A stretch of 60,920 nt of DNA from a virus. Lineage: Duplodnaviria > Heunggongvirae > Uroviricota > Caudoviricetes. The translations under genes were made by a program, and so were the position numbers. Below the pieces are notes generated by a model. The model was not told the origin of the DNA and made no database searches. It saw nothing but the letters and a program-made list of their open reading frames with translations. Below are positions 6,683-51,854 of this stretch, in pieces (the stretch's first letter is position 1; each line of letters starts with the position of its first letter). The stretch lies in the IMG/VR virus record IMGVR_UViG_2744054872_000005. One strand, given 5' to 3'.

Positions 6683-6709
6683 AAAAAAGCCCGCCTGAAC
6701 CGGCGGGCT
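6683..6709 (-). terminator. rho-independent terminator downstream of lom
   Basis: GC hairpin agcccgcc/ggcgggct with a T-run on the minus strand. Confidence 0.6.
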
Positions 6710-6735
6710 GTCATAACACTGTGTTACCTGGCTAA

Positions 6736-7335
6736 TCAGAATTTATAGCCAACACCCACGATGAACCCGTCAGTGCGCCAGCCGCCACTGCCGGAGCCTT
6801 CATAAGCGACATCAACGGCCACGGATTCGGTCGGGTTAAACTGCACCCCAGCTCCCCACGCCAGAGAGGTGTTACTGTGGCGAGCGTCATCACTTCCGGT
6901 CAGCACGTCGTGCGTTTTCCCCTTGCTGTCAGTTACGCGGAGATAATCCCCGGAGAAGGTCGAAACACGGCTGTAAGCCACACCCGCTACCGCATAAGCA
7001 CTGAACCATTCATTCACGCGTACAGATGGCCCCGCCATCACGCTGAACCAGCGGTTACGCACTGAATCTTCATGCCAGCGGGTATCGCTGTAACGGGTAA
7101 TCTGGCGATTCTTGTCTCCTGCATAGCTGAATGACGTCACCATCCCCAGTGTGTCCGTAAACTCATAACGGTATTTCACGTTAATCCCGTTCAGATCGTC
7201 GCTGCCGGGAACGTTGGTCCGGGCATGAAGATACCCCGCGCTCAGCGTGGACTGATGTTCAGACGCCCATGCAGGCGCACCGGATACAGCCAGACAAATG
7301 GCTGCGGACAAAATGGCGGCATAAAGTTTACGCAT
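6736..7335 (-). CDS. lom: outer membrane protein Lom (Ail/Lom family)
   Basis: 199 aa with signal peptide, C-terminal GYKF, high similarity to lambda Lom by recall. Confidence 0.9.
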
Positions 7336-7404: not shown

Positions 7405-10400
7405 TCAACGAATACTGATGCCGGAAGCAGCTTTTTTGGTCACAATCACCGTACAGTCGGTGATATTGCCTGCCCCCTGATTGCCTTTCTGGAAAATCTT
7501 AAACTCCAGAGTGACGCTTCCCCTGCCACTCGGCATATCAATAACCGCACTGTAACTACCGGGAATGGCCCCTTTAGTTTCTCTGGACGCGATTAATACG
7601 CCGTTTTTGCGAACTTCAAAACCATAACCCGTGTATCGCGTGCCTCCGGGGTTATTTCCGCTCCCCGGATCGTCATACGCTATACCGTTAAAAATAATGG
7701 GCGGAATAATAATCTGGCGGTCAAAGTTATGATCATCGCTGATGGTGACTGTAACCGTACCGTCTGGTGTTTCCGTGTTACCCCACGTACCGACTTTTTT
7801 CGGGAAGGCTTTTGATACAGCTTTAACGAAATCCCCTCTGACCTGGGTCGCCTCCAGCATGCCCTTAATCGTACAGTTCTGGTTAATCGTGACATTGTTG
7901 AGCGTTCCTGAGTTCGCATTCACACTGCCACTGATATCCGCATTTTTAGCGGTCAGCTTTCCGTCTGATGTCAGGGAAAATACCGGAGGACTGCCACCGC
8001 TGGTAATGGTGGGTGCCGTCAGGCGTTTCAGGAACACGTCGTTCATGAATATCTGGTTGCCCTGCGCCACAAACATCGGCGTTTCATTCCCGTTTGCCGG
8101 GTCAATAAACGCGATACGGTTAGCGGCAACCAGAAACTGACTCAGTTTGCCTTCCTCCGTGTCCTCCATACTGAGGCCAATACCCGCGACATAATGTTTG
8201 CCGTCTTCGGTCTGCTCAATTTTGACGCCCCACATGGCATTCCATTTATCGTTGGCGTCTTTCCACTCTTTCGAAAACTCCTCCAGTCTGCTGGCGTTAT
8301 CCTCCGTCAGCTCGACTTTTTCCAGCAGCTTCTTGCCAAGATGGGATTCGGTTATCTGGCCTTTGAAAAAATCCAGGTAACCTTCCGCATCATCGCTCGC
8401 CCGACCGACGGCCTCCACAAATGCCGATTTGCCGACGGTGTTCACACTGCGGATATAAAAGTAATAATCATGGCCCGGTTTGATATTGATACTGGCGGCT
8501 ATCCAGTACAGCGCCGTACCAAGATAGCGGGCTGTGGTTTCAACCTGCCTGATATCCGCAATCCGCTTTTCCGAGAACCAGAACTCAAACTGTACCGTCG
8601 GGTCATAAACGGCAAGATGCGGCGTGGCGGTTATCTGAAAATAGCCCGGCGTCAGCTCAATCCTCGACGGTGCTGCCGGTGCGGCAATCCGGAACGATAC
8701 CGACGCCGGATCGCCCTGCTGCCCCCACGCATTTACCGCCCGGACTGTCAGCCTGTAGTTCCCCAGCGCCAGTTGCGTGAAGCGGTATGTGGTTTCCGTC
8801 GTCCGGGCCGTGCTGACCAGCCGCTCACTGCCGTCATCCGCTGTTACGGTCAGACGGAGCAGGAAGCTCACGCCCTTCACCACCTTCGGCGTGTCCCAGC
8901 GCGCCAGCACCTGATATTCCCCGCTGCCTGCGGTGACTTCGGCGGTCAGGTGCTGCACCGCTGGCGGCGTGACACCATTCACCGTGCCGCTCTGGTCGCC
9001 GTCAAAGTGCGCCCCGTTATCCACGATGGCTTCTTTTTCCGGTACATGCTGCACGGCAGTGATGGCATACGTGCCGTCATCGTTCTCACGGATACTCACA
9101 CAGCGGAACAGGCGCTGGCGCAGCGTCGGCAGCTTAAGCCCCCACACGCTGTATTCAGCAACACCGTCAGGAACCCGGCTAACTTTTACCTTCACGCCGT
9201 CGGTGACGGACTGGACCTCCACGCTGACCGGATTGCCACTTCCGTCAACCAGGCTTATTAGCGTGGTACCGGAGGATGGCAGCGTGATTTCACGGTCGAG
9301 CGTCAGCGTCCGGGTCTGGCTGTTCACAGCTAGCACGCGCCCGCCGATGCTGATCCCCGCATAGTCATCATCGCAGATTTCAATAACATCACCCGGCACA
9401 TGGCGAAGCCCTTCGGCACCCACGCTGAAATCCACGGTCTGCGTCTCCAGCAGCTCCGTTTTAATCAGCCACAGCCCGGCGCGGTGTGCCTGCCCCCGTC
9501 TGGTACAGCCAAAGGCATCCATCTTCGTAACATTACGACCGTAACGGGCAATGGCCTGCGTATCTTCAACAAGCTCTGTCGCCGTCTCCCAGCCGTTGTT
9601 CGGGTCAATCCAGTTCACCTCAACGGCATTATGGCGGTCCTTCAGGGCGCTGAAGCTGTAGCGGAACGGCGCGCCATCATCCGGCATCACCACATTACTG
9701 CGGTTATAGGTCCACACCTTATCTGATGGTCGGTCCTGCACGAACGTCAGCGTCTGCCCGTTCCATACCGGCATACAGCGCATCGCCGAGCAGAAATCAC
9801 TGAGCACATCCCACGCCTTGCGCTGTGTGGTCAGGTACGCATTACAGGTGATGCGCGGCTCCGTGCCGCCAAAGCCGTCCGGCACTGACTGGTCGCAGTA
9901 CTGGCCGATGACATACAGCGCCCATTTATCCACATCCGCCGCACCAAGACGTTTCCCCATGCCGTAGCGCGGATGGGTCAGCATATCCCACAGACACCAG
10001 GCCATGTTGTTGCTGTATGCCGGTTTAAACGTTCCGTCCCAGATACCGCTGTATTGCCGCGTCTGCGGGTTATAATTCGACGGCACCTGCAGAATACGCC
10101 CGCGCAGATGATAATTACGGCTCACCTGCTGGCTGCCGAACTGCTCCGAGTCCACCTGCACGCCGATCAGTGCCGTGTTCGGGTAGCACTGTTTCACATC
10201 GATAATTTCGGTGTATGACGACCAGAGCGTTTTGTTCTGCAGCTGGTCTGTGGTGCTGTCCGGCGTCATCCTGCGCATCCGGATACTGAACGGGCGCGGC
10301 GGCAGGTTATCCACCACCACCGAGGCCAGATACTGTGAAGTGGTTTTACCCTTAATGGTGATGTCTTTTTCCGTCACCCAGCCACCGTTACGTTGTATCT

Positions 10401-38224: not shown

Positions 38225-38686
38225 CTATCTGCACTGCTCATTAATATACTTCTGGGTTCCTTCCAGTTGTTTTTGCATAGTGATCAGCCTCTCTCTGAGG
38301 GTGAAATAATCCCGTTCAGCGGTGTCTGCCAGTCGGGGGGAGGCTGCATTATCCACGCCGGAGGCGGTGGTGGCTTCACGCACTGACTGACAGACTGCTT
38401 TGATGTGCAACCGACGACGACCAGCGGCAACATCATCACGCAGAGCATCATTTTCAGCTTTCGCATTAGCTAACTCCTTCGTGTATTTTTCATCCAGTGC
38501 AGCAACATCACGCTGGCGCATCTGCATGTCAGTAATTGCCGCGTTCGCCAGCTTCAGTTCTCTGGCATTTTTGTCGCGCTGGGCTTTGTAGGTAATGGCG
38601 TTATCACGGTAATGATTAACAGCCCATGACAGGCAGACGATGATGCAGATAACCAGAGCGGAGATAATCGCGGTTACTCTGTTCAT
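38225..38686 (-). CDS. Rz: i-spanin Rz
   Basis: Near-identical to lambda Rz from [18 protein letters not shown]. Confidence 0.95.
38284..38466 (-). CDS. Rz1: o-spanin Rz1 (embedded in Rz, +1 frame)
   Basis: [24 protein letters not shown]...[29 protein letters not shown], lambda Rz1-like lipoprotein. Confidence 0.95.
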
Positions 38687-39180
38687 TGCTGACCCCACAA
38701 ACAGATTTCACGCTCAATCTCACGACGAGTCATGAGACCTTTCCATTGCTTACCGCCAGCATATGTCCAGCGACGTAGCTGATCACATGCGCCTTTGATA
38801 TCGCCCTGGTTTATTTTGCGAAGAAGCGTCGATGTTCTGAAATTGCCAGCGCCCACGTTGTAAACGAACGAGTAAAGAGCGCCGCGCGTTGTTTCCGGTA
38901 TATCAACTTTGATGTACGGGTTAATTTGTCTGGCGACCGTGGCAAGGTCTTTATTCAGGAGGGCTTTGCATTCTGCTTTGGTATACGTTTTACCGAGCAT
39001 GATGTCTTTTCCTGTATGCCCGTGACATACAGTCCATACACCAACAATATCTTTGTATGGTATGTAGCTGACACCTTCCAGACCATCGTTACCACTTGGG
39101 CCAGTAATTAACACTGATGCTATAGCAATTGCTCCGCCACCAATAGCAGCAGCAACGGCTTTTCGTAATGATGGAGGCAT
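38683..39180 (-). CDS. R: SAR endolysin (phage 21 R-type lysozyme)
   Basis: 165 aa with N-terminal Gly/Ala-rich SAR domain; matches phage 21/DLP12 lysozyme by recall. Confidence 0.9.
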
Positions 39181-39395
39181 TATTCACCTCTCGCAGCCTT
39201 GCGCTTATCTTCTTTAATCTTGAAATAAAGGTTTGTCAGGTACGTCAGCAGGCCAAATACCAGGCTACCCAGCACACCTATTGCTGCCCACTGTGAGGGC
39301 GTGACTTTATCGAGCAGCTGTAAAAACCAGTAGCCAGCACTGCCTGCGGAGGTGCCGTAGGCAATGCCTGTTGAAATTTTGTCCATGGATTTCAT
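39180..39395 (-). CDS. S: pinholin S (phage 21 S-type, dual start)
   Basis: [26 protein letters not shown]... two TMDs; the listed ORF is longer upstream. Confidence 0.85.
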
Positions 39396-39496
39396 AGCCT
39401 CACCTCCGCACGGAACGGATGGCATAGTTATTATGTGTAGGCTTTCAGACACATCAATCAGAGCCTTAATTGATATATATGCTGGAGACGATGCAA

Positions 39497-39521
39497 TATA
39501 AAAAGCTCGCCATAGCGAGCT
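39497..39521 (-). terminator. rho-independent terminator between the lipoprotein moron and S
   Basis: agctcgc-cata-gcgagct followed by a T-run on the minus strand. Confidence 0.5.
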
Positions 39522-39646: not shown

Positions 39647-40042
39647 CTAACCTCGCATGTCAAAGCCAGATTTCTGAAAATCTCTGTAGACTTCCGGATT
39701 GTTGAAGGCCGGAAATTTGGCTTTATGAGCTGCGGACTTTATCGCTTCGCAATAGGCTTTATCACCGTTACTGGTAGATATTTTTAACGCCGTGCCATCC
39801 TGAGAGAATTCCATATGCAACCTGCATTTTTTCCCTTTCCAGTTATGCGGCTCATCAAGTTTGGCATTAATTGCAGCTCTGATTCCCCGCGCTTGCGCCC
39901 CCCATTCATCCTGATCATCCCAGCGTCCTGAACTGCAACTACCTGTAGCAGTAGTTTTGTGGCAATCTGAAGGGTGTAAAGGTGTGCATCCCGCAACAAA
40001 ACCGACCCAAAAAGTCAACATAACGATTTTCTTTAATCCCAC
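39647..40042 (-). CDS. lipoprotein with TolA C-terminal (domain III)-like domain, paralogue 1
   Basis: Lipobox VAGC; C-terminal region resembles TolA domain III (KKCRLHMEFSQDGTALKISTSNGDKAYCEAIKSA...PEVYRDF). Confidence 0.6.
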   Translation of the reverse strand: MGLKKIVMLTFWVGFVAGCTPLHPSDCHKTTATGSCSSGRWDDQDEWGAQARGIRAAINAKLDEPHNWKGKKCRLHMEFSQDGTALKISTSNGDKAYCEAIKSAAHKAKFPAFNNPEVYRDFQKSGFDMRG

Positions 40043-40192
40043 TTCTTGCTCCTCAATCCATTAAAATCTCAGCAATAGTAGTTGTTACGTCCGCCACTGG
40101 CTCAGAGCTGACTATCCGCTAAATTTAGCTCAGTGCCGTAGCTGTGTCAGAACAAACCTAAGCCGAAACCGTTTATTACAAAACAATAAATA

Positions 40193-40621
40193 TCAGGGTT
40201 TAAAATCCAGCACCCCATTTTGAAATACTTTATATACTTCCGGCGAAGGGGGGGCAGGTATATCAGCATTCTTTATCGCATTCATCGCTTCACGACATAA
40301 ATCGAGGTCTCCACTTTCTCTTTTAACCTCCAGTAGAAGGCCATTCGGGGCCATATGCATTCTCAGTGTACACTCTTTTCCTGAATACTTACTCGCATCC
40401 CCGAACTGTTTTTCGATGGCGCTCTTGATTTGATGGGCATACAGACGGATATTCTCACTAACATCAGAAGTACGTTCAGATGAACTCACATACTGTGTCT
40501 CTATTGCTTTATCGGAGTAATATGATGTACGGTCATGATAATTTGTCGATACAGCATCAGTGCACCCGATAATAATCCCACTAATAATCAACGTAAGAAT
40601 TGATGCGCTACGAAAACCCAT
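40193..40621 (-). CDS. lipoprotein with TolA C-terminal (domain III)-like domain, paralogue 2
   Basis: Lipobox IIGC; YAHQIKSAIEKQFGDASKYSGKECTLRMHMAPNGLLLEVKRESGDLDLCREAMNAIKNADIPAPPSPEVYKVFQNGVLDFKP closely matches recalled E. coli TolA C-terminus. Confidence 0.7.
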   Translation of the reverse strand: MGFRSASILTLIISGIIIGCTDAVSTNYHDRTSYYSDKAIETQYVSSSERTSDVSENIRLYAHQIKSAIEKQFGDASKYSGKECTLRMHMAPNGLLLEVKRESGDLDLCREAMNAIKNADIPAPPSPEVYKVFQNGVLDFKP

Positions 40622-41154
40622 TTTTCCTCACATATGTCATATAGTAAAGGATTATATATACCGTTGTTTTGGACGCTCAAACAGCGAATCAGATCAAATA
40701 AAACGCACATTTGTTAACATTTACACAAAGTCTGCGTGGGATATTCTGAAAGAATATCCATAATGTGGAGAGAATCTATTGAAGTGCATGGTGCCGGGTG
40801 CCTCCCGGTGAATTCAGTACCAGCACCTGAATCCGCGATTATCCCATATACCTACTCGCTGATTGCCCCTCCGCACAGGGGGATTCACCATGCCAGTTTC
40901 TTTTAACAAACTCCCCGCAAACCAGAGAACAGTCAACCGCCTGAATTGTGAAGTATTTAAAAATTTCTCCCGCTAACTGATACCCGGCTAACAGTCTGGC
41001 GTTTTCTTTTTCAGCAACGGGAAAGCAACAACCACCACACCCGCCACCAGCACACCGTCAGCCAGCACTGACATTATCCGGCTGCTGCAATGCCATTCAC
41101 AAAAACAGTAAGCAATCACTTTTTACCGTAACAGGTGATAATCCAGATATGTAT

Positions 41155-41508
41155 CTACCCCAGATGAGTAATCCGAAGTTCATCCATACCACAGGTCCTG
41201 GCTATTCTGTTGTACTCCTGAACAAGAGCAAATAATTCTGAATTAGCAACCATGAACTCATCGCAAACCCTCTGTATAGCATCACTATTCAGAAGAATAA
41301 CGTCTCTTCCCGAAAGACGATCAGGAGTACAGAACAAAACTGTCAAACGGCTGAAGGCCTTTGCTCGTGCTGCATTGACTATATCAATACGCTGCCTAAG
41401 GATGAAACACCCCGACGCCTCATCAATATTCACTCTACCCACACCATATGAATGATAAATATTTAATGCTGAAAAAACCATTAGACCGTATAACAAACAC
41501 TCAATCAA
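41155..41508 (-). CDS. hypothetical protein (117 aa) in moron slot
   Basis: ORF between the tRNAs and the lipoprotein genes; no recognisable domain. Confidence 0.35.
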   Translation of the reverse strand: MIECLLYGLMVFSALNIYHSYGVGRVNIDEASGCFILRQRIDIVNAARAKAFSRLTVLFCTPDRLSGRDVILLNSDAIQRVCDEFMVANSELFALVQEYNRIARTCGMDELRITHLG

Positions 41509-41618: not shown

Positions 41619-41695
41619 TGGCGCGCTGTACTGGATTCGAACCAGTAACCGATTGCTTAGAAGGCAATTGCTCTGTCCGGCTGAGCTAACAACGC
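41619..41695 (-). tRNA. tRNA-Arg (anticodon UCU)
   Basis: 77 nt; clover-leaf drawn by hand: acceptor GCGTTGT/ACAGCGC, anticodon loop CTTCTAA, T-loop GGTTCGAATCC, 3' GCCA. Confidence 0.8.
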
Positions 41696-41800: not shown

Positions 41801-41876
41801 TGGTGGCCCTTGCTGGATTTGAACCAGCGACCTGGCGATTATGAGTCGCTCGCTCTCACCACTGAGCTAAAGGGCC
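41801..41876 (-). tRNA. tRNA-Ile2 (anticodon CAU, ileX/ileZ-like)
   Basis: 76 nt GGCCCTTTAGCTCAGTGGTGAGAGCGAGCGACTCATAATCGCCAGGTCGCTGGTTCAAATCCAGCAAGGGCCACCA; close to recalled E. coli ileX. Confidence 0.8.
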
Positions 41877-41912: not shown

Positions 41913-41940
41913 AATAAAAAACCCGCTCGGCGGCGGGTTG
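41913..41940 (-). terminator. candidate tR' terminator downstream of Q
   Basis: GC-rich hairpin acccgc...gcgggt followed by a T-run on the minus strand, about 80 nt past the Q stop. Confidence 0.5.
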
Positions 41941-42019: not shown

Positions 42020-42841
42020 TTACCTAGTTACCTTTTTTAACTGCCGCTCAGCCCATCCTTCTTCAATATCAAACCGGGTCACCAGCGCATCATAGAATTT
42101 CTTAACTGTTTTTTCCCATGACGCGCGTGTTATCTGGTTTGTCACCTCGCATATAGCATTAAATGCCTCCGTTGATGGTAGTCTTTCATAGCCACGACCA
42201 CCACAACGCTGGCAGTCTCTGATAACAGGCATACCACGTTTTACCGACTCTTCACGGTGAATGGCGACACCACGCCCACGGCAATCCTTACAGGCGGTGG
42301 AAACCTCACCCTTTCCGCCACACTCCGGACAGGCAACTTTTACCACCTCCCTGACTTTTTTCCATTCTTCCCAGTAAGACGGATACACACCTTTCGTACA
42401 CTTTGCCCATACCGGCGGCTTACCATCCGGATACTGGACCTTGTTTGTAAAAACTACGCTTTCAATAAATTTTTCCCCATAGCAACAAGGGCACTGCTTT
42501 TTACTCGCTGCGCTGCGGGCATAATCCTCAAAAGCGTACGAAGCCATAATGCGCATCACTACCGGTTTTATTTCTGCCGGAAGTTTTCTCAACGCCGCCA
42601 CACGATCGCACCGACTGAGTGCATAATCTGCCAGTAATTCTGTTGCCCGCGCCCTGTCATTCATACTGATGCCCATTTTCCCCAGGAACGCAGAAAACCC
42701 CATCTCAGCCCGATTCTGTGTCATGCCCTGCGCGGCCATCACATCAGTGATACTCAGCGCATCTTTTGACGTTGAGGCCGATGCATCGGTCAGGCAAGGG
42801 GATTTTGGGGAGTAGTATTTCGGTAAATCTTCCAGTTTCAT
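42020..42841 (-). CDS. antitermination protein Q (Qin QuuQ-like, zinc-binding)
   Basis: 273 aa with several CxxC pairs; position upstream of tRNAs and lysis genes; resembles Qin-type Q by recall. Confidence 0.65.
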   Translation of the reverse strand: MKLEDLPKYYSPKSPCLTDASASTSKDALSITDVMAAQGMTQNRAEMGFSAFLGKMGISMNDRARATELLADYALSRCDRVAALRKLPAEIKPVVMRIMASYAFEDYARSAASKKQCPCCYGEKFIESVVFTNKVQYPDGKPPVWAKCTKGVYPSYWEEWKKVREVVKVACPECGGKGEVSTACKDCRGRGVAIHREESVKRGMPVIRDCQRCGGRGYERLPSTEAFNAICEVTNQITRASWEKTVKKFYDALVTRFDIEEGWAERQLKKVTR

Positions 42842-45597: not shown

Positions 45598-46797
45598 ATG
45601 CCATTTGTTATTTATGTGTTTACTATCAGTGCCTTTGCGCTCGGACTCGCGGAATTTGTCCCCATTGGGCTGACAGACGTTATGGCTCAGGGGTTGTGTG
45701 TGGGTGTGGAGCAGACCGGGGCAGCGGTTACAACCTATGCACTGGGGGCAACGTTCGCGGCACCCGTACTGTCTGCGCTGACAGCAAGCTGGAGCCGGAA
45801 AAATGTAATGCTTACAACTGCCGTTGTGTTTACTGCCGGTAGTCTGGCGGCCGCGTTTGCAGCCACATTACCTCAGCTCCTGTTAGCGCGGTTCATTGCT
45901 GGTCTGGGACACGGCCTGTTTCTGGCTGCGGCATCCAGTACCGCAGCTCGTCTTGCTGGACCGGGTAAAGCAGGCAGAGCGGTGGCTGTGGTATTTGGTG
46001 GCTTTACTCTGGCGATGGCAATCGGCGTACCGCTGAGTACATGGTTGGGGGGGGTGGTCTCATGGCGTCCAGTTCTCGGCGCTATTGCCGCTTTTGGCGC
46101 GTTCGGATTCCTTGGACTGTTGTTCGGTATGAAAGATCCCGTACGCAGCGTGCCCGGTGAACATAGTGACTCAGCAATGCAGAATATCGGCATGCTGTTT
46201 AACCGTAAGTTGCTGGCCGGCGCGCTGGTTACGGTGCTGGCGTATGCAGGCTCGTTTACGGCTTACACCTTTATCGCACCTATTCTGACGCAGGTGACAG
46301 GGGTTACCGGAGCAACGGTGAGTCTGTTTATGCTGGTTTACGGTATTACAGCTGCGGTAGGTAATATTCTTGGTGGGAAACTTACCGACAGCATGGGGGT
46401 TAATCGTGCCAATATACTCATCATTAGCGGCATTGTTGTTGTCGTGCTTGGTATGTGGCTGCTGTCATCCTCACCGGTGAGCATGGGCATTCTGGTTGCG
46501 CTGCTGGGTATGGTGACATTTGCCGCAGTGCCGGCACTGCAGGCCCGTCTGATTGGTGTCGCTGAGCAACATGCTCCTCATGCGCATGGTGTTGCTGCCG
46601 GCCTGAATATTGCGGGCTTCAACTCAGGTATAGCGCTGGGATCAGTACTGGGCAGCATTACTATAAGCCACGCCGGTATCGTGTATACCGGTATCAGCGG
46701 TGCGATTGTTTCTCTGCTCGGCCTGCTGTTGCTGCTTGCACAAATCCGTCGCAGCCACAGTCGTAAATTTCAACAGGTTAAAATCGTAGGCCAGTAA
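45598..46797 (+). CDS. MFS transporter (399 aa)
   Basis: 12-TM-type hydrophobic protein with MFS-like loop motifs. Confidence 0.7.
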   Translation: MPFVIYVFTISAFALGLAEFVPIGLTDVMAQGLCVGVEQTGAAVTTYALGATFAAPVLSALTASWSRKNVMLTTAVVFTAGSLAAAFAATLPQLLLARFIAGLGHGLFLAAASSTAARLAGPGKAGRAVAVVFGGFTLAMAIGVPLSTWLGGVVSWRPVLGAIAAFGAFGFLGLLFGMKDPVRSVPGEHSDSAMQNIGMLFNRKLLAGALVTVLAYAGSFTAYTFIAPILTQVTGVTGATVSLFMLVYGITAAVGNILGGKLTDSMGVNRANILIISGIVVVVLGMWLLSSSPVSMGILVALLGMVTFAAVPALQARLIGVAEQHAPHAHGVAAGLNIAGFNSGIALGSVLGSITISHAGIVYTGISGAIVSLLGLLLLLAQIRRSHSRKFQQVKIVGQ

Positions 46798-46808
46798 AGG
46801 GAGGTTAT

Positions 46809-47501
46809 ATGCTTACCCGTGAAAATATGCTTAATGGCACATTTGTCAGGGTGCATGAAGCGCTGCTCCCGGCGAATATGCTCTGGGACGCTGAAAAAAT
46901 ACGCGCATCAATGAACTCTACTCTGGAGGAGCGCCCGACGGGTGCTCCTTTCTGGATATTTGCCTACGGGTCATTGATGTGGAATCCCGTGCTGGCAATT
47001 GAAGAAATGCAACGGGCCCGTCTGAAAGGATGGCAGCGCAGTTTCTGCATTCGTTTGATATCCGGACGAGCGACTCCTGATGTCCCCGGCAGGATGTTAT
47101 CGCTCGACGAAGGTGGAATTACCGAAGGTATTGCGTTCAGACTGCCGGAATCGACTCTTATTAATGAGCTGGAAATTGTCTGGACGCGCGAGATGATAAC
47201 CGGTCTTTACCGTCCGGTCTGGGCAGACGTTTCGCTAGGAAACGGTGAGGAAATTCAGGCGCTGGCTTTCGTATCAGACAGACTGCATCCGCATTATGAA
47301 CAGGACAATCTTACAGCGACCGTAGCATTGAGCATCGCATCTGCCCGTGGAGACATTGGCACGAATGCAGATTATGTATGGAAACTGCAGGCCACTCTGG
47401 GTGCGTTGGGAATACGGGATGATTACGTGAGTGAACTGGCCCTTGCTCTGCATGAGGCTCCCTGTAACGATAAACTTCATCAGCGAGGCGCTTCACTATG
47501 A
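46809..47501 (+). CDS. ChaC-family gamma-glutamylcyclotransferase-like protein
   Basis: FAYGSLMWNP motif and collinear similarity to recalled E. coli ChaC. Confidence 0.7.
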   Translation: MLTRENMLNGTFVRVHEALLPANMLWDAEKIRASMNSTLEERPTGAPFWIFAYGSLMWNPVLAIEEMQRARLKGWQRSFCIRLISGRATPDVPGRMLSLDEGGITEGIAFRLPESTLINELEIVWTREMITGLYRPVWADVSLGNGEEIQALAFVSDRLHPHYEQDNLTATVALSIASARGDIGTNADYVWKLQATLGALGIRDDYVSELALALHEAPCNDKLHQRGASL

Positions 47502-48379
47502 GCCATCTGAGCCATCTGCGAACGTTTCTTGAGGCCTATCGCTCTGGCTCCTTTTCAAAGGCGGCAGAACTACTGGGCATCACTCAGCCCGCGGCGTCAC
47601 AGCATATCCAGTCTCTTGAGACTCTGGTTGGTAAGCGTCTGTTTATCAGGCAGGCCAGAGGCGTGACGGCAACCGAAGCTGCGGATGAGCTTGCCCGCTC
47701 AGTTTCACCCTTCATTGATGGTCTGGAAGAAAAGCTGTCCTCTTTCCGGTCAGGCTCTGTACACGGGGGAACAATTAATCTGGCAGGACCGCCAGATTTT
47801 ATTCATTCCCGGCTTGGGACAGTAATGGCTCCACTAATGAAGGAGGGGTATCGCCTACGCTTTCATACCGGCAATAAGCAACGTATTTATTCCCTTTTGC
47901 ATGACGGGAGCGCCGATCTCGCTGTTACCGCATCTATGCCTGATGACCGTCTGTACGGCTATGCACATCTACTGACTGAACGCATGCTCCTTGTTCATGC
48001 TCCCGCCATGTCAGAGATCATCGGATCAGAACCTGGTGCTGAAACGCTTGCCTCATTACCGCTGATTGCTTATGACGAAGAGTTGCCACTGATTAGAGCG
48101 CTCTGGGCCTCCATGTTTCAGAGAGCCCCTGAGATGCAGGCTACATTCACCATTCCGGATTTACGTATTATCCGCGACTTGGTCTGTGACGGCCACGGGT
48201 GGACAGTGCTGCCGGATTATCACTGTGACAATGACCTGAAAAGTGGTCGCCTGATTTCAGTGACACCTGCAGACCTCGCTCCGACTAATCATCTTTATCT
48301 GGTCTGGAACAAAAGGACGGCTAATAACAGCCGAACCGCCTATGTTCGGGATTACATTCTTAAAACGTTTCCGCGTTGA
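47498..48379 (+). CDS. LysR-family transcriptional regulator
   Basis: N-terminal HTH (AAELLGITQPAASQHIQSLE) plus LysR substrate-binding domain length. Confidence 0.85.
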   Translation: MSHLSHLRTFLEAYRSGSFSKAAELLGITQPAASQHIQSLETLVGKRLFIRQARGVTATEAADELARSVSPFIDGLEEKLSSFRSGSVHGGTINLAGPPDFIHSRLGTVMAPLMKEGYRLRFHTGNKQRIYSLLHDGSADLAVTASMPDDRLYGYAHLLTERMLLVHAPAMSEIIGSEPGAETLASLPLIAYDEELPLIRALWASMFQRAPEMQATFTIPDLRIIRDLVCDGHGWTVLPDYHCDNDLKSGRLISVTPADLAPTNHLYLVWNKRTANNSRTAYVRDYILKTFPR

Positions 48380-48509
48380 TGTTTGAAACGGATGATTGGC
48401 GATGCGTATCATAAGTTACGTATGTCCGCTTCTGGCACAAAGCAGACGCCCACTCTCACGCGAATGCTTTGCCCTTGACTTGCCAACAACCGTATCGCTT
48501 GCTCCGCAA

Positions 48510-49802
48510 CTATGGTTTTTTATTAGAACCTTCGCCACTAAATAAATTATAATAAATTGATTTTATTAGATATCTGTCAGAATCTATATGGTCAGCACGA
48601 GTAGCATGCTCTAATGTTTCAAATGCTAGGGTTTGTGCGGCTTCAGCAAAAATTCCAGGCCAACCCTTACTCAGCATCGACAGTCCTTTAAGTACCCTTA
48701 TCTGAATTTCCCTCATACTGGCACCATCGCGCGCAACAGGTGAGAAAAAGTCTTCAAGTAGATCGTTATTCTGAAGTGGTGCAACATGTACAGAAGGATA
48801 TTTCACTTCTATTTCATCAGATTTATTCTGCGCGTAAGCGGAAAGTATACGTACACCTCTGCCAATGACATCAATGGCGGTTCCAGGATCGTTCACTGCG
48901 GGGGAAAGGGCTCGGCAGGCTATTTCGGCCATGACGCTAAGACAAAATCGGGGGTCCTGAGCAAATGAACGTACATCCGAGACAATAATCGTCTCAAGTA
49001 AATCGGTGCTGATTGATGACTCCTGGCCCTGACTCAGGTACAAAACTGGCGTGGACGGATGTATGAAACTGCCCGGCTGCGCCACGAGGTATACATGACG
49101 GGGATCATTGGTCAGCAGCTTGCTGAGTTTCACCATATCAACATATTCAACATAGCCAATCTTTTTCGGATAAACTGCAACCGTTCCTTTCGGCTGTTCA
49201 TTGTTCTCAAGCCAAGGATATCCGCCGAGACAGGGATTTCTTGCTCTCGCAATAAATGTTTCGATGGCCGCCTGTTCTACTTTTGCCGTTGTCTCACCAA
49301 CCCTCCCCAGAGAGGTCAAATGCTGTATCCAGCGAAGCAATGTGATGAGGATTAAGGCAATGACAACCAGTGTTACAATGAATAAAATGACTCTCCCCCT
49401 TTCTCCATAAGCTCCCATATTGAGGGCAATAATCCCTACCAGACTGAAGAGAAAAGAACCGATGAAGGTGGCCAGTACATTTTGTGTGGTGACGTCTTCA
49501 ACAACTAAACGAGTAGCTCTGGGAGTCACATTAGTAGTGGCTGAACCGTAGGCTGTGACCATGATGCTCAGCGAAAATGTGGTCACTGCCAGCATACTCG
49601 ATGCCAGTATGTTCAGAATGTTATCGACTGCTTCCGCACCAACCTTCACGGAAACCGACTCAGGTATCATTGATTTAAAAAGAATTGATAAAAGGGCCGT
49701 TATTATTGCGACAATTGCGAATAACGTTGCCCTGAACCATAGTTTTTTAAATGTCTGCTTCAGCATCCATTTCCAGCGTGAAATCATTCTGCATTCCCTC
49801 AT
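48510..49802 (-). CDS. DUF2254-like membrane protein
   Basis: 430 aa with N-terminal TM segments; family assignment by recall only. Confidence 0.5.
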   Translation of the reverse strand: MRECRMISRWKWMLKQTFKKLWFRATLFAIVAIITALLSILFKSMIPESVSVKVGAEAVDNILNILASSMLAVTTFSLSIMVTAYGSATTNVTPRATRLVVEDVTTQNVLATFIGSFLFSLVGIIALNMGAYGERGRVILFIVTLVVIALILITLLRWIQHLTSLGRVGETTAKVEQAAIETFIARARNPCLGGYPWLENNEQPKGTVAVYPKKIGYVEYVDMVKLSKLLTNDPRHVYLVAQPGSFIHPSTPVLYLSQGQESSISTDLLETIIVSDVRSFAQDPRFCLSVMAEIACRALSPAVNDPGTAIDVIGRGVRILSAYAQNKSDEIEVKYPSVHVAPLQNNDLLEDFFSPVARDGASMREIQIRVLKGLSMLSKGWPGIFAEAAQTLAFETLEHATRADHIDSDRYLIKSIYYNLFSGEGSNKKP

Positions 49803-49850
49803 ATTGCAGCCGGGATAAATAAATGCCGCCTCTGTGGCGGCATGTTGCTG

Positions 49851-51854
49851 TTAACGAACCAGATGCAGGAAGTGCAGGTGTTTTTCGTACTGGTCCAGTA
49901 TGTCATTAATCAGCTGTTCCTGATTCCAGCCCATTACATCATAATTTTGGCCGCCCTCTTTGAGATAGACTTCAGCGCGATAATATCGATGTTGTTCACT
50001 CTGCTGCTCATCATTATCCAGCGCAGCGAGCGCGAAGGTCGGTGAGTTATACCCGCGAAGCCTCACTTCATATATATAATTCAGCTCGTTGCCCAAATCG
50101 ACTTCAAGGCGAATACGATCCTCGGCGGCGTCACTGATGTGGCTTATCGTTCCCTGCTTGTTAAGTTCCTCCTGAACCAGCGTCATGGCGGGTTGGATAA
50201 TGTCGTCCATAAAACGTTTCACAAGAGAGCGCTTCGGCAAATACGCGATATTGCGTAACCTTCTCTGCCAGGGAATTGGGTTACGTGCAGCCGTAGGAGC
50301 AATAGTCGCCATGCTAAGGCTTTCACGCTTGGTCAAATCCCGACGCAGGGCTTTTAACAGTCCGTATATGGATATTAATAAGATAACTGAGAAGGGCAAT
50401 GCACTCGCTATCGTTACGGTTTGCAACGCACTCAGCCCCCCTGCGATCAGCAGGGCAATAGCAACAACGCCCATGAGCGATGCCCAGAAAATTCGCTGCC
50501 AGACGGGCGTGTTTGCCACCCCACCTGATGCCAGAGTATCCACAACCATTGCCCCCGAATCAGCAGACGTTACAAAGAAGACGATGACCATCGCCATTGC
50601 AATGAATGACAGCACGGAAGAGAACGGGAAATGCTCCAGGAAATTAAACAGGGCAAGCGCAACATCCTGCTGAACGGTATTGGCGAGGTCAGTGGCGCCC
50701 TGGTTCATGATGAGATAGATGGCGCTGTTTCCAAACACCGTCATCCACATGAGCGTAAAGCCGGCGGGAACAAACAACACGCCAGTCACGAACTCACGAA
50801 TTGTCCTGCCGCGGGAAACGCGTGCAATGAACATACCTACAAACGGCGACCATGAAAGCCACCATCCCCAGTATAATAATGTCCAGCCCCCCAGCCAGTT
50901 GCTCGACTTGGGTTCATACGCGTAAAGGTTGAACGTTTTACTCACCAGTTCCGACAGATAACCACCCGTATTTTCCACAAATGACTTCAGCAGAAGCACA
51001 GTGGGACCCAGGCACAAGACCAGCGCCAGGAGCAACACCGCCAGGCCCAGATTAAGCTCAGACAGGATGCGTATTCCCTTGTCCAGGCCGGACACCACCG
51101 AAATCGTCGCTAACCCCGTGATGACCACGATCAAAATGACCTGTACCGTTTCATTGATGGGCACGCCGAAAAGATGGTTCAAACCGGCATTCACCTGCAA
51201 TACACCGTAACCCAGTGATGTTGCAACGCCAAAGACAGTGCCTATCACGGCGAAGATATCAACCGCGTGGCCTATAGGCCCGTAAATGCGATCGCCGATA
51301 ATGGGATAGAGCGCAGAACGCAGCGTTAAAGGCAGACCGTGACGGTAACTGAAAAAGGCCAGAATCAGCGCCACGATGGCATAAATTGCCCATGCGTGCA
51401 GACCCCAGTGGAAGAACGTCAGGCGCATGGCTTCCTTCGCTGCCGCAACGGTCTCTGGAGTGCCGACAGGTGGCGAAAGATAATGCATCACAGGTTCGGC
51501 AACGCCAAAGAACATCAGGCCGATCCCCATCCCTGCCGAAAAAAGCATCGCGAACCAGGAGTGGTAGCTGAAATCAGGCTGCGCATGGTCTGGGCCCAGC
51601 TTTATATCACCGTAACGTGAGAGTCCAAGGAACGTGACGCTCAGTAAAATCAGGGCCACAGCAAGTATGTAGAACCAGCTGGCATTCGTGAAGATTTGTT
51701 GCTGAAGTAGTTTAAAATTTTTGTCGGCGACATCCGGGAATACGGCGGCAAAGGCGACAAGAAGGAAAATTAGCAAAGCAGATGTAAAGAATACCGCTTT
51801 GTTAATCTGGCTTGTAGACTTCTTTGGGGTTGTATCATTTTCACTCATAATCAT
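49851..51854 (-). CDS. BCCT-family transporter (BetT-like, 667 aa)
   Basis: Multi-TM N-terminal two thirds with BCCT-like motifs and long cytoplasmic C-terminal extension. Confidence 0.7.
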   Translation of the reverse strand: MIMSENDTTPKKSTSQINKAVFFTSALLIFLLVAFAAVFPDVADKNFKLLQQQIFTNASWFYILAVALILLSVTFLGLSRYGDIKLGPDHAQPDFSYHSWFAMLFSAGMGIGLMFFGVAEPVMHYLSPPVGTPETVAAAKEAMRLTFFHWGLHAWAIYAIVALILAFFSYRHGLPLTLRSALYPIIGDRIYGPIGHAVDIFAVIGTVFGVATSLGYGVLQVNAGLNHLFGVPINETVQVILIVVITGLATISVVSGLDKGIRILSELNLGLAVLLLALVLCLGPTVLLLKSFVENTGGYLSELVSKTFNLYAYEPKSSNWLGGWTLLYWGWWLSWSPFVGMFIARVSRGRTIREFVTGVLFVPAGFTLMWMTVFGNSAIYLIMNQGATDLANTVQQDVALALFNFLEHFPFSSVLSFIAMAMVIVFFVTSADSGAMVVDTLASGGVANTPVWQRIFWASLMGVVAIALLIAGGLSALQTVTIASALPFSVILLISIYGLLKALRRDLTKRESLSMATIAPTAARNPIPWQRRLRNIAYLPKRSLVKRFMDDIIQPAMTLVQEELNKQGTISHISDAAEDRIRLEVDLGNELNYIYEVRLRGYNSPTFALAALDNDEQQSEQHRYYRAEVYLKEGGQNYDVMGWNQEQLINDILDQYEKHLHFLHLVR

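Follow-up and report, generated by a model that had tools for sequence, protein, structure and literature searches.

Here we describe two neighboring genes, called P1 and P2 in the following, which encode small lipoproteins carrying the C-terminal domain III of TolA (TolAIII) without the remainder of the TolA protein. They are located in a stretch of viral DNA of 60,920 nucleotides (IMG/VR record IMGVR_UViG_2744054872_000005; Caudoviricetes), which as a whole is referred to as the window and which represents a lambdoid Escherichia coli prophage inserted at ydfJ, i.e., the Qin site. TolAIII is the docking head of the Tol system, and P1 and P2 would be prophage cargo genes (morons) that provide this head as a stand-alone domain. 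We regard it as an even call that both proteins act as outer-membrane-tethered, motor-less decoys which confer tolerance to Tol-dependent bacteriocins and to filamentous phages. That the two proteins exist, which fold they adopt and how they are distributed is well supported. The domain as such and automatically annotated genes encoding it were known before; what is new is the well-motivated hypothesis that mobile elements exert entry exclusion or bacteriocin tolerance by mimicry of a periplasmic co-receptor.

P1 (40193-40621, minus strand) starts with ATG and encodes a lipoprotein of 142 amino acids, which is composed of a signal peptide, a disordered linker and TolAIII. P2 (39647-40042, minus strand) starts with GTG, with the sequence GAGGAG 6 nt upstream, and encodes a lipoprotein of 131 amino acids, in which the signal peptide is followed by a linker containing a Cys-x8-Cys motif and by TolAIII. 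The N-termini of both proteins show a charged n-region, a hydrophobic h-region and a lipobox, which is I-I-G-C20 in P1 and V-A-G-C19 in P2. The signal peptide of P1 including the lipobox reads MGFRSASILTLIISGIIIGC (40562-40621, minus strand) and is followed by TD, and that of P2 reads MGLKKIVMLTFWVGFVAGC (39986-40042, minus strand) and is followed by TP, by which Cys20 of P1 and Cys19 of P2 have a Thr and no Asp at position +2. The first-pass annotation of this DNA had proposed two lipoproteins with the lipoboxes VAGC and IIGC; both open reading frames (ORFs) are found exactly where it had placed them and the lipoboxes can be read directly from the sequence. In an alignment of the P1 family the residues G19, C20 and T21 are invariant. 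Given the Thr at this position, the +2 rule predicts sorting to the outer membrane, and P1 and P2 should be tethered there and not be free in the periplasm. For P2, the automatic annotation by PGAP sets the start at Met8 (375 nt), by which the Lys-Lys n-region of the signal peptide is lost. The GTG start with its GAGGAG sequence agrees with the N-terminus of the plasmid-encoded orthologues of P2 (MGVKKIV...VAGC), for which PGAP instead extends the ORF upstream (143 amino acids). An alignment of the P2 subfamily furthermore reveals a conserved motif starting at the lipidated Cys, C-x-P-[LI]-x-P-x2-C-x-K-x6-C (P2 residues 19-36, in the region 39986-39935), which is preceded by the Gly of the lipobox and which is missing from the P1 subfamily. 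This Cys motif probably forms a small disulfide loop in the tether.

The assignment of the C-terminal domains to TolAIII is based on profile searches, pairwise alignments and structural models. The Pfam family TolA_C (PF06519; gathering score 25 bits) matches P1 with 82 bits (3.6e-23) and P2 with 54.6 bits (1.3e-14). In a phmmer search against the sequences of the PDB, P1 residues 56-142 align without gaps to residues 335-421 of E. coli TolA (E ~1e-27), with 51 of 87 residues being identical (59%), and P2 matches the solved E. coli TolAIII with E ~5e-9 and shares 27 of 87 residues with TolA (31%). P1 and P2 are 29% identical to each other (E = 2e-18), and both belong to phrog_5772, which is labelled 'unknown function'. 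The AlphaFold model of P1 is disordered for residues 1-49, with a predicted local distance difference test (pLDDT) score of <50 for residues 21-49, and it is confident for residues 52-142, which constitute the TolAIII domain (40196-40468, minus strand; pLDDT 77-92 per 10-residue block; alpha/beta topology). In agreement with the TolAIII fold, a three-stranded sheet packed on helices, it superimposes on 2X9A_B with a template modelling (TM) score of 0.84 and a root mean square deviation (rmsd) of 2.1 Å. The TolAIII domain of P2, residues 46-131 (39650-39907, minus strand), is modelled with pLDDT >90 for residues 50-130 and superimposes on 3QDP with a TM score of 0.91 and an rmsd of 1.2 Å. The cysteine pair forming the disulfide in TolA (C363 and C388) is present in both P1 and P2. 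The likeness of the C-terminal domains to TolA had been suggested in the first-pass annotation from peptide strings, which are found in P1, and the structural comparison with TolAIII, for which it had named a lack of similarity as a refutation, returned this very fold for both proteins. Chance as the source of the match to TolAIII is excluded.

The known ligands of TolAIII use two faces of the domain. TolAIII is a known hub for TolB (PMC7391070), and the documented ligands comprise g3p of the filamentous phages (Ff), the colicins A, N, E1 and K, and TolB (PMC4339652, PMC7391070). The N1 domain of g3p, colicin N and the N-terminus of TolB bind to the last TolAIII strand (A415-K420) by beta-strand addition, and the exchanges D418P or K420P in TolA abolish binding and result in a full tol phenotype (PMC4339652). 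The affinities are ~1 μM for colicin N and g3p and ~40 μM for TolB (PMC4339652). Colicin A docks on the opposite edge, L375-P380, and forms cation-pi contacts with K368, K379 and K396 (PMC3365938). In P1, the C-terminal LDFKP, which forms the beta-3 strand, corresponds exactly to L417-P421 of TolA, and Y340, I344, I348 and F419 are retained as well. At the colicin A site P1 has LLEVKR where TolA has LLDIKP; K379 and K396 are kept and K368 is replaced by His. Judged by these residues, P1 mimics both known TolAIII faces, reproducing the beta-3 docking site of g3p, colicin N and TolB together with the larger part of the beta-2 site bound by colicin A. P2 ends in FDMRG, in which D418 and the beta-forming residues are kept. 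Since P2 retains the fold and a C-terminus of the beta-3 type but not the lysines contacted by colicin A, P1 and P2 probably cover different ligands. The C-terminal pattern [hydrophobic]-D-F-[K/R] recurs across the short TolAIII lipoproteins.

Both proteins clearly differ from a bona fide TolA. The domain I anchor, which mediates the coupling to TolQ-TolR, is absent and the N-terminus is instead formed by the lipoprotein signal peptide of 19-20 residues, which is predicted to be cleaved; moreover, the helical domain II is absent, and P1 and P2 consist of 142 and 131 amino acids, respectively, compared to ~400 in TolA. The matches of P1 and P2 to NCBIfam models are limited to model positions ~265-387. 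Both fail the cut-off of PRK09510 (213 bits) with 106 bits for P1 and 54 bits for P2, and for TIGR02794 (cut-off 59.45) P1 passes with 75.1 bits and P2 fails with 47.2 bits. The genes lie outside of the tolQRA-tolB-pal cluster, between the Q antiterminator gene and the prophage holin gene. The name 'cell envelope integrity protein TolA' given to P1 by PGAP is an over-annotation, which perhaps arises because P1 passes the TIGR02794 cut-off. Whatever the function, this misleading name on lipoproteins of 142 amino acids can confuse gene counts and the interpretation of transcriptomes. PADLOC returned no match to P1 and P2 and contains no model for such proteins. A search of the full-text literature for functional studies on phage- or plasmid-encoded TolAIII lipoproteins found none; a 'TolA' gene of a cloacin-like plasmid was noted in passing (PMC10269471), and a phage TolA gene was mentioned, likewise in passing, as an 'AMG' (PMC10520572). 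In the record of mEp460_ev081 (L104, 3181-3396) the 216-nt holin gene beside P2 is labelled 'Phage tail fiber protein', and a comparable mislabel might be behind a published remark equating a prophage 'tail fiber' gene with TolA (PMC11125564).

The genes are widespread in E. coli. Of 5426 complete E. coli genomes, 774 contain the P1-P2 block with an identity of ≥99%, and 898 contain intact copies when the entire P1 family is counted. Among 50,697 phage records the pair was found only in mEp460_ev081, in which the order Q, DUF3927 gene, P1, P2 and holin gene is unchanged, and a scan of viral contigs retrieved only near-identical copies of the window prophage. Variants of P1 with 90% and 65% identity, which are not accompanied by P2, occupy the slot between Q and the holin gene in other lambdoid prophages with different Q types. 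In one of these prophages (L096) a nanS-p-type esterase gene (DUF1737 and SASA) comes after the P1 variant, and DUF1378, DUF826 and the holin gene come next. These are the genes found behind stxAB in phages encoding Shiga toxin (Stx) 2, and the P1 variant thus appears to be in the stx position.

The closest relatives of P2 (87-88% amino acid identity) are encoded on plasmids (604 PLSDB records), where they directly follow the relaxase gene nikB of MPF_I conjugative plasmids of the IncI complex (typed IncK2/Z or IncI1/B/O; IncB/O/K/Z-type). On the IncK2/Z and IncI1/B/O-typed plasmids the P2-like gene occupies the junction of nikB and trbC (L006/L007, 6965-7396), often together with resistance cargo. 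A P2-like gene on pO157 was considered as part of the F leading region, which was rejected, as the gene follows a truncated IncI-type nikB and represents the remnant of an IncI-complex segment. The homology between prophage and plasmids at the DNA level is confined to the P2 ORF plus 30 nt, and the P1-P2 tandem therefore reflects two separate acquisitions and no local duplication. The first-pass annotation had called the genes tandem paralogues. They are paralogous in a wide sense, by their identity of 29% and the shared phrog_5772, and only in this sense, since the nearest relatives of P2 are found on plasmids and variants of P1 without P2 exist in other prophages; a local duplication had to be given up. 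A recent capture of P1 from E. coli tolA was rejected as well, as blastn with a word size of 11 does not detect the chromosomal tolA and as the amino acid identity amounts to just 59%.

Both P1 and P2 are under purifying selection. For the TolAIII domain, the ratio of non-synonymous to synonymous substitutions (dN/dS) amounts to 0.12-0.26 in P1 and to 0.09 in P2, at dS values of 0.2-0.5, and P2 compared with the plasmid copy gives 0.11. The linker of P1 is far looser than the domain, with a dN/dS of 0.5-0.77. The last 60 residues of P2 are identical in the prophage and the plasmid copy although dS is 0.4.

P1 and P2 belong to a larger family, members of which are associated with the C-terminal domain of TonB (TonB_C). 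At a threshold of E ≤ 0.001, a profile search in 1.84 billion cluster representatives retrieved 635 clusters (50% identity), and 252 clusters satisfied E ≤ 1e-10; both counts include genuine full-length TolA. Among the best 150 clusters, 94 have representatives of ≤175 amino acids, and at least 56 of these 94 short representatives carry a lipobox. The members with a name belong to Erwinia, Kosakonia, Klebsiella and Scandinavium, and automatic annotation labels every one of them simply 'TolA'. Cloacin-like ColRNAI plasmids of Klebsiella encode a TolAIII lipoprotein with the lipobox LTAC and the C-terminus APLDFRP, and in this operon the TolAIII gene is followed, with overlapping stop and start codons, by a gene for a TonB_C protein with a signal peptide (PF03544, 8.9e-11; L002, 4908-5641). 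In three clusters, P0051, P0099 and P0142, TonB_C and TolA_C are fused in a single lipoprotein, and P0099 (L108, 8001-8630) belongs to a lambdoid prophage, in which its gene maps to the nin region, upstream of Q and apart from the lysis genes. One gene of the P2 subfamily adjoins a CvaA/CvaB-type microcin exporter, and on IncF plasmids of Klebsiella a family member is paired with a thioredoxin-fold gene. In Kosakonia a chromosomal family member is located next to dinI, near icd.

The mechanism we propose starts from the tether. The flexible linker of ~25-35 residues would hold the TolAIII head at the inner face of the outer membrane, i.e., where the translocation domains of group A bacteriocins exit porins or TolC and where the N1 domain of g3p arrives. 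By beta-strand addition, the decoy would capture the TolA-binding epitope ahead of the real, inner-membrane-anchored TolA. As P1 and P2 possess neither the membrane anchor of TolA nor the helical domain II, they would be unable to couple to the TolQR motor, and without this coupling a docked ligand would not be pulled into the cell and its import would stall. The promoter-like site upstream of P1 would allow expression in the lysogen. We infer each of these elements, from the outer-membrane location and the expression in the lysogen to the binding of ligands, which is deduced from conservation, and the protective phenotype. Given affinities of ~1 μM for the invaders and ~40 μM for TolB, modest levels of the decoys could trap invaders without a collapse of Tol-Pal. 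Export of TolAIII into the periplasm of wild-type cells, as studied by Levengood-Freyermuth et al. in 1993, reportedly resulted in tolerance to the colicins E1, E2, E3 and A, not to colicin D, and in leaky cells. A construct of this kind, rbp-TolAIII, was used to make cells leaky (PMC6195910).

The comparative evidence strengthens the case for decoys over a modulation of Tol-Pal, and this holds for the recurrence of TonB_C, for the occurrence on bacteriocin and conjugative plasmids and for the prophage site that is separate from the lysis genes. The argument that weighs most in favor of decoys is the link to TonB, since TolA and TonB differ in their physiological job but both are import hubs which are exploited by bacteriocins and phages. 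The family resides on elements that are exposed to threats by bacteriocins and phages, i.e., conjugative and cloacin-like plasmids, and next to a microcin exporter. The position of P0099 in the nin region, upstream of Q, moreover indicates that the family is not tied to lysis.

The prophage surrounding P1 and P2 contains int/xis, dicB, ydfABCD, lambda-like head and tail genes, Lom and Iss/Bor. On the minus strand, to which all coordinates of this module refer, Q is followed by a tR'-like terminator, two tRNA genes, an ORF of 117 amino acids, a gene for a DUF3927 protein of 43 amino acids, a small RNA (sRNA) gene of the STnc100 family, P1, P2, a terminator and the genes for holin, lysozyme and Rz/Rz1; the position between the tRNAs/Q and the lysis genes is the one given by the first-pass annotation. 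Q (42020-42841) was identified by the Pfam family Antiterm (2.9e-54), the tR'-like terminator (41920-41939) by a terminator scan and the tRNA genes (41801-41876 and 41619-41695) by ARAGORN. The tRNA at 41801-41876 is reported as tRNA-Met (anticodon CAT) by ARAGORN and as tRNA-Ile by PGAP, and its probable identity is a lysidine-type Ile2 tRNA. This tRNA and tRNA-Arg(TCT) together resemble the tRNA genes located downstream of Q in Stx phages. The ORF of 117 amino acids (41155-41508) uses a TTG start and matches the full profile of phrog_2873 (unknown function) with 6e-70; it is missing from the PGAP annotation of an identical genome region. The DUF3927 ORF (40988-41119), just upstream of the sRNA gene and P1, matches phrog_1470 (7.8e-13). 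The label of phrog_1470, 'TciB-like inhibition of cell division or resistance to colicin', goes back to the naming of a gene of bacteriophage P1 and has no tested function behind it.

Directly upstream of P1, the sRNA gene (40732-40922) matches the STnc100 family over its full length (Rfam RF02076; 114 bits at a gathering score of 47; E = 1.6e-25), and PGAP annotates at this locus a partial pseudo-CDS that runs in the opposite direction (window 40763-40903). In another prophage (L097) three copies of STnc100 (6704-6877, 7599-7803 and 7854-8061) flank the P1 variant, and the DNA block shared between the window and L097 corresponds to window 40954-40192, comprising the sRNA gene, the promoter-like site and P1. 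A connection of STnc100 to AgvB and AsxR, the anti-sRNAs of enterohaemorrhagic E. coli (EHEC), was sought, and STnc100 is not mentioned in the AgvB/AsxR paper. A consensus scan identified a candidate sigma-70-like promoter ~30 nt upstream of the P1 start (40651-40680; TTGAGC-18 nt-TATAAT; 10 of 12 consensus matches), and this site is kept in an 88%-identical module of other prophages, where the -10 element is TGTAAT. Between P2 and the holin gene, an intrinsic-terminator hairpin (39504-39521; AGCUCGC-UAUG-GCGAGCU followed by a U run) was found by a terminator scan and is present in both the minimum free energy and the centroid fold. The lysis cassette (38225-39452) encodes a P21-type holin, lysozyme and Rz/Rz1 (Phage_holin_2_1 1.8e-35; Phage_lysozyme 1.3e-45; essD, rrrD and rzpD in PGAP). 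No LexA box was found near the promoters of P1 and P2, and there is accordingly no sign of a direct SOS control. P1 and P2 constitute an extra unit between conserved phage genes, which is variably present, which has a promoter-like site and a terminator and at whose gene borders the DNA homology ends. From its sequence features, the pair looks like a classical moron unit, consisting of promoter, genes and terminator, inside of the Q-dependent late transcript. Further away, between the replication region and hokD, the prophage carries ~6 kb of non-phage cargo (window ~45598-51848) with genes for a BCCT transporter, a DUF2254 protein, a LysR regulator, a gamma-glutamylcyclotransferase and an MFS transporter.

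Several observations weigh against the decoy function. P2 lacks the lysines contacted by colicin A, the three positions being occupied by Glu, Ser and His. The genes are also part of the Q-dependent late transcript, by which their main expression could be lytic, and the promoter of P1 is a consensus match only. A decoy would carry a cost, since free periplasmic TolAIII makes cells leaky, and as the beta-3 strand is also the TolB site, P1 and P2 could primarily disturb Tol-Pal. Filamentous phages threaten only cells with conjugative pili. In R64, the classic IncI1 plasmid, a TolAIII gene is missing and nikB abuts trbC (L106, 17391-22418), which means that the P2-like gene is not general to plasmids with I-pili. 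Finally, the ordinary chromosomal neighborhoods in which some family members are encoded hint at a housekeeping role in the envelope.

The alternative that survives best, although we consider it unlikely, is a function as helper of lysis or release, in which TolAIII lipoproteins expressed from pR' under control of Q would flood the periplasm and titrate the TolB N-terminus from TolA, by which Tol-Pal would be switched off and the outer membrane loosened, resulting in faster lysis, more vesicles or more periplasmic release. The genes are encoded in the late operon immediately before the holin gene, and all examined E. coli copies of the P1 family lie between Q and holin; furthermore, the beta-3 strand as TolB site is the best-conserved surface element (PMC4339652), and periplasmic TolAIII causes leakiness (PMC6195910). 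However, the family occurs also on non-lytic elements, i.e., on conjugative plasmids after nikB, on ColRNAI plasmids and at chromosomal loci, the TonB_C::TolA_C fusion is encoded in the nin region upstream of Q, and a pairing with TonB_C makes no sense for a loosening of the outer membrane. The unit moreover has its own promoter-like site and terminator, and the phage is already equipped with a full set of holin, endolysin and spanin. The position alone says little, because the slot between Q and holin is a general hot spot for cargo, as exemplified by mEp460, in which genes for a cold-shock protein and gnsB adjoin the lysis genes.

Marginally less probable is that the proteins modulate the envelope of the lysogen, with a tethered TolAIII tuning the TolB-Pal cycle and thereby vesiculation, tolerance to detergent or serum, or the capture of Pal at the division site, as a fitness or virulence moron like Bor/Iss and Lom. 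Iss/Bor and Lom are indeed encoded in the same prophage, and the role of TolAIII as TolB hub fits to this function (PMC7391070). Two clusters that differ by >50% share a conserved place in the chromosome, flanked by clcB and an osmoprotectant ABC transporter and close to the ynfE region (L092, 8001-8408, and L101, 8001-8408), one of them in Scandinavium and the other on a metagenome contig, which suggests vertical inheritance of a chromosomal TolAIII family member and a role in cell physiology. Against a modulation of the envelope stands that no force can be applied without coupling to TolQR, and that the links to TonB_C, to bacteriocin plasmids and to the microcin exporter are left unexplained. 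In the 1993 study on exported TolAIII, the free domain is said to fail in complementing a tolA null mutant and to harm envelope integrity.

A further possibility, which we rate as somewhat more doubtful again, is that the proteins exclude another Tol-using invader, such as tailed phages, contact-dependent or type VI toxins, or tailocins acting via TolA or TolB, and that a protection against colicins and Ff is incidental or absent. The anatomy of the proteins would be as expected for the decoys, the diversity of the family (635 clusters, including full-length TolA; 94 of the best 150 short) would fit an arms race in which the ligands vary, and the surface of P2 departs from TolA at the colicin A site. 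We know of no such invader of E. coli, and the documented TolAIII ligands are those named above (PMC4339652, PMC7391070). That P1 and P2 are decaying fragments of a captured tolA without a function of their own is very improbable. Frameshifted or truncated alleles do exist (P0010, P0031, P0036) and PGAP makes no distinction between P1 and 'TolA', but the selection analysis contradicts decay with a dN/dS of 0.09-0.26 in the domain at dS of up to 0.5 and with the unchanged last 60 residues of P2. The lipobox, the cysteines and the C-terminal strand are conserved over dozens of clusters, and 898 of 5426 E. coli genomes contain intact copies.

If the decoy function is correct, approximately one in six complete E. 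coli genomes holds an unnoticed tolerance to Tol-dependent colicins and filamentous phages, and the same applies to hundreds of plasmids of the IncI complex and to bacteriocin plasmids of Klebsiella. This would have a bearing on bacteriocin warfare in the gut, on therapeutic colicins and klebicins, on phage display and the biology of Ff phages in wild strains, and on the question how prophages and plasmids pay their way, and mimicry of a periplasmic co-receptor would join the known mechanisms that block entry. A still wider proposal, to which we give a little less than even chances, is that outer-membrane-tethered, motor-less heads of TolAIII and of the TonB C-terminus, encoded alone, as operon pair or as fusion, form a large unrecognised class of defence systems on mobile elements, which act as decoys aborting the Tol- and Ton-dependent import of bacteriocins and phages and which are traded as cassettes by prophages and plasmids.

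Among the known systems, the direct experimental model for P1 and P2 is the engineered periplasmic TolAIII, which is also a motor-less TolAIII in the periplasm (Levengood-Freyermuth 1993; Wan and Baneyx 1998). Unlike this soluble protein, which is strongly overproduced, P1 and P2 are natural, predicted to be lipid-anchored, diverged and presumably expressed at a low level from a promoter of their own. With domain III of E. coli TolA (~325-421; PDB 1TOL, 1S62, 2X9A, 3QDP/3QDR), P1 and P2 share the fold (TM scores of 0.84-0.91) and the disulfide cysteines, and P1 in addition shares 59% identity and the LDFKP strand. In contrast to P1 and P2, TolA possesses domains I and II, which are replaced in P1 and P2 by the lipoprotein signal peptide and a short disordered linker; furthermore, the P1 and P2 genes are encoded on a prophage and not in the tol-pal operon, and P2, with an identity of 31%, has lost the colicin A lysines. 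The plasmid-encoded TolAIII lipoproteins, i.e., those of IncB/O/K/Z plasmids after nikB and those of Klebsiella ColRNAI plasmids with a TonB_C partner, have the same architecture as P1 and P2, but replicons and neighbors differ. Phages are also known to encode small outer-membrane lipoproteins, such as Llp of T5 and Cor of phi80, N15 and HK022, which inactivate FhuA and by this stop phages and colicins using the same route. These show no kinship to P1 and P2 in sequence or fold, and while Llp and Cor plug a receptor in the outer membrane, P1 and P2 would imitate a periplasmic co-receptor as decoy. In cells infected by Ff phages, g3p occupies TolA, which results in colicin tolerance and in the exclusion of superinfecting phages. 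P1 and P2 would represent the mirror image of this system: g3p saturates the TolA of the host, and P1 and P2 would saturate the TolA-binding epitope of the invader.

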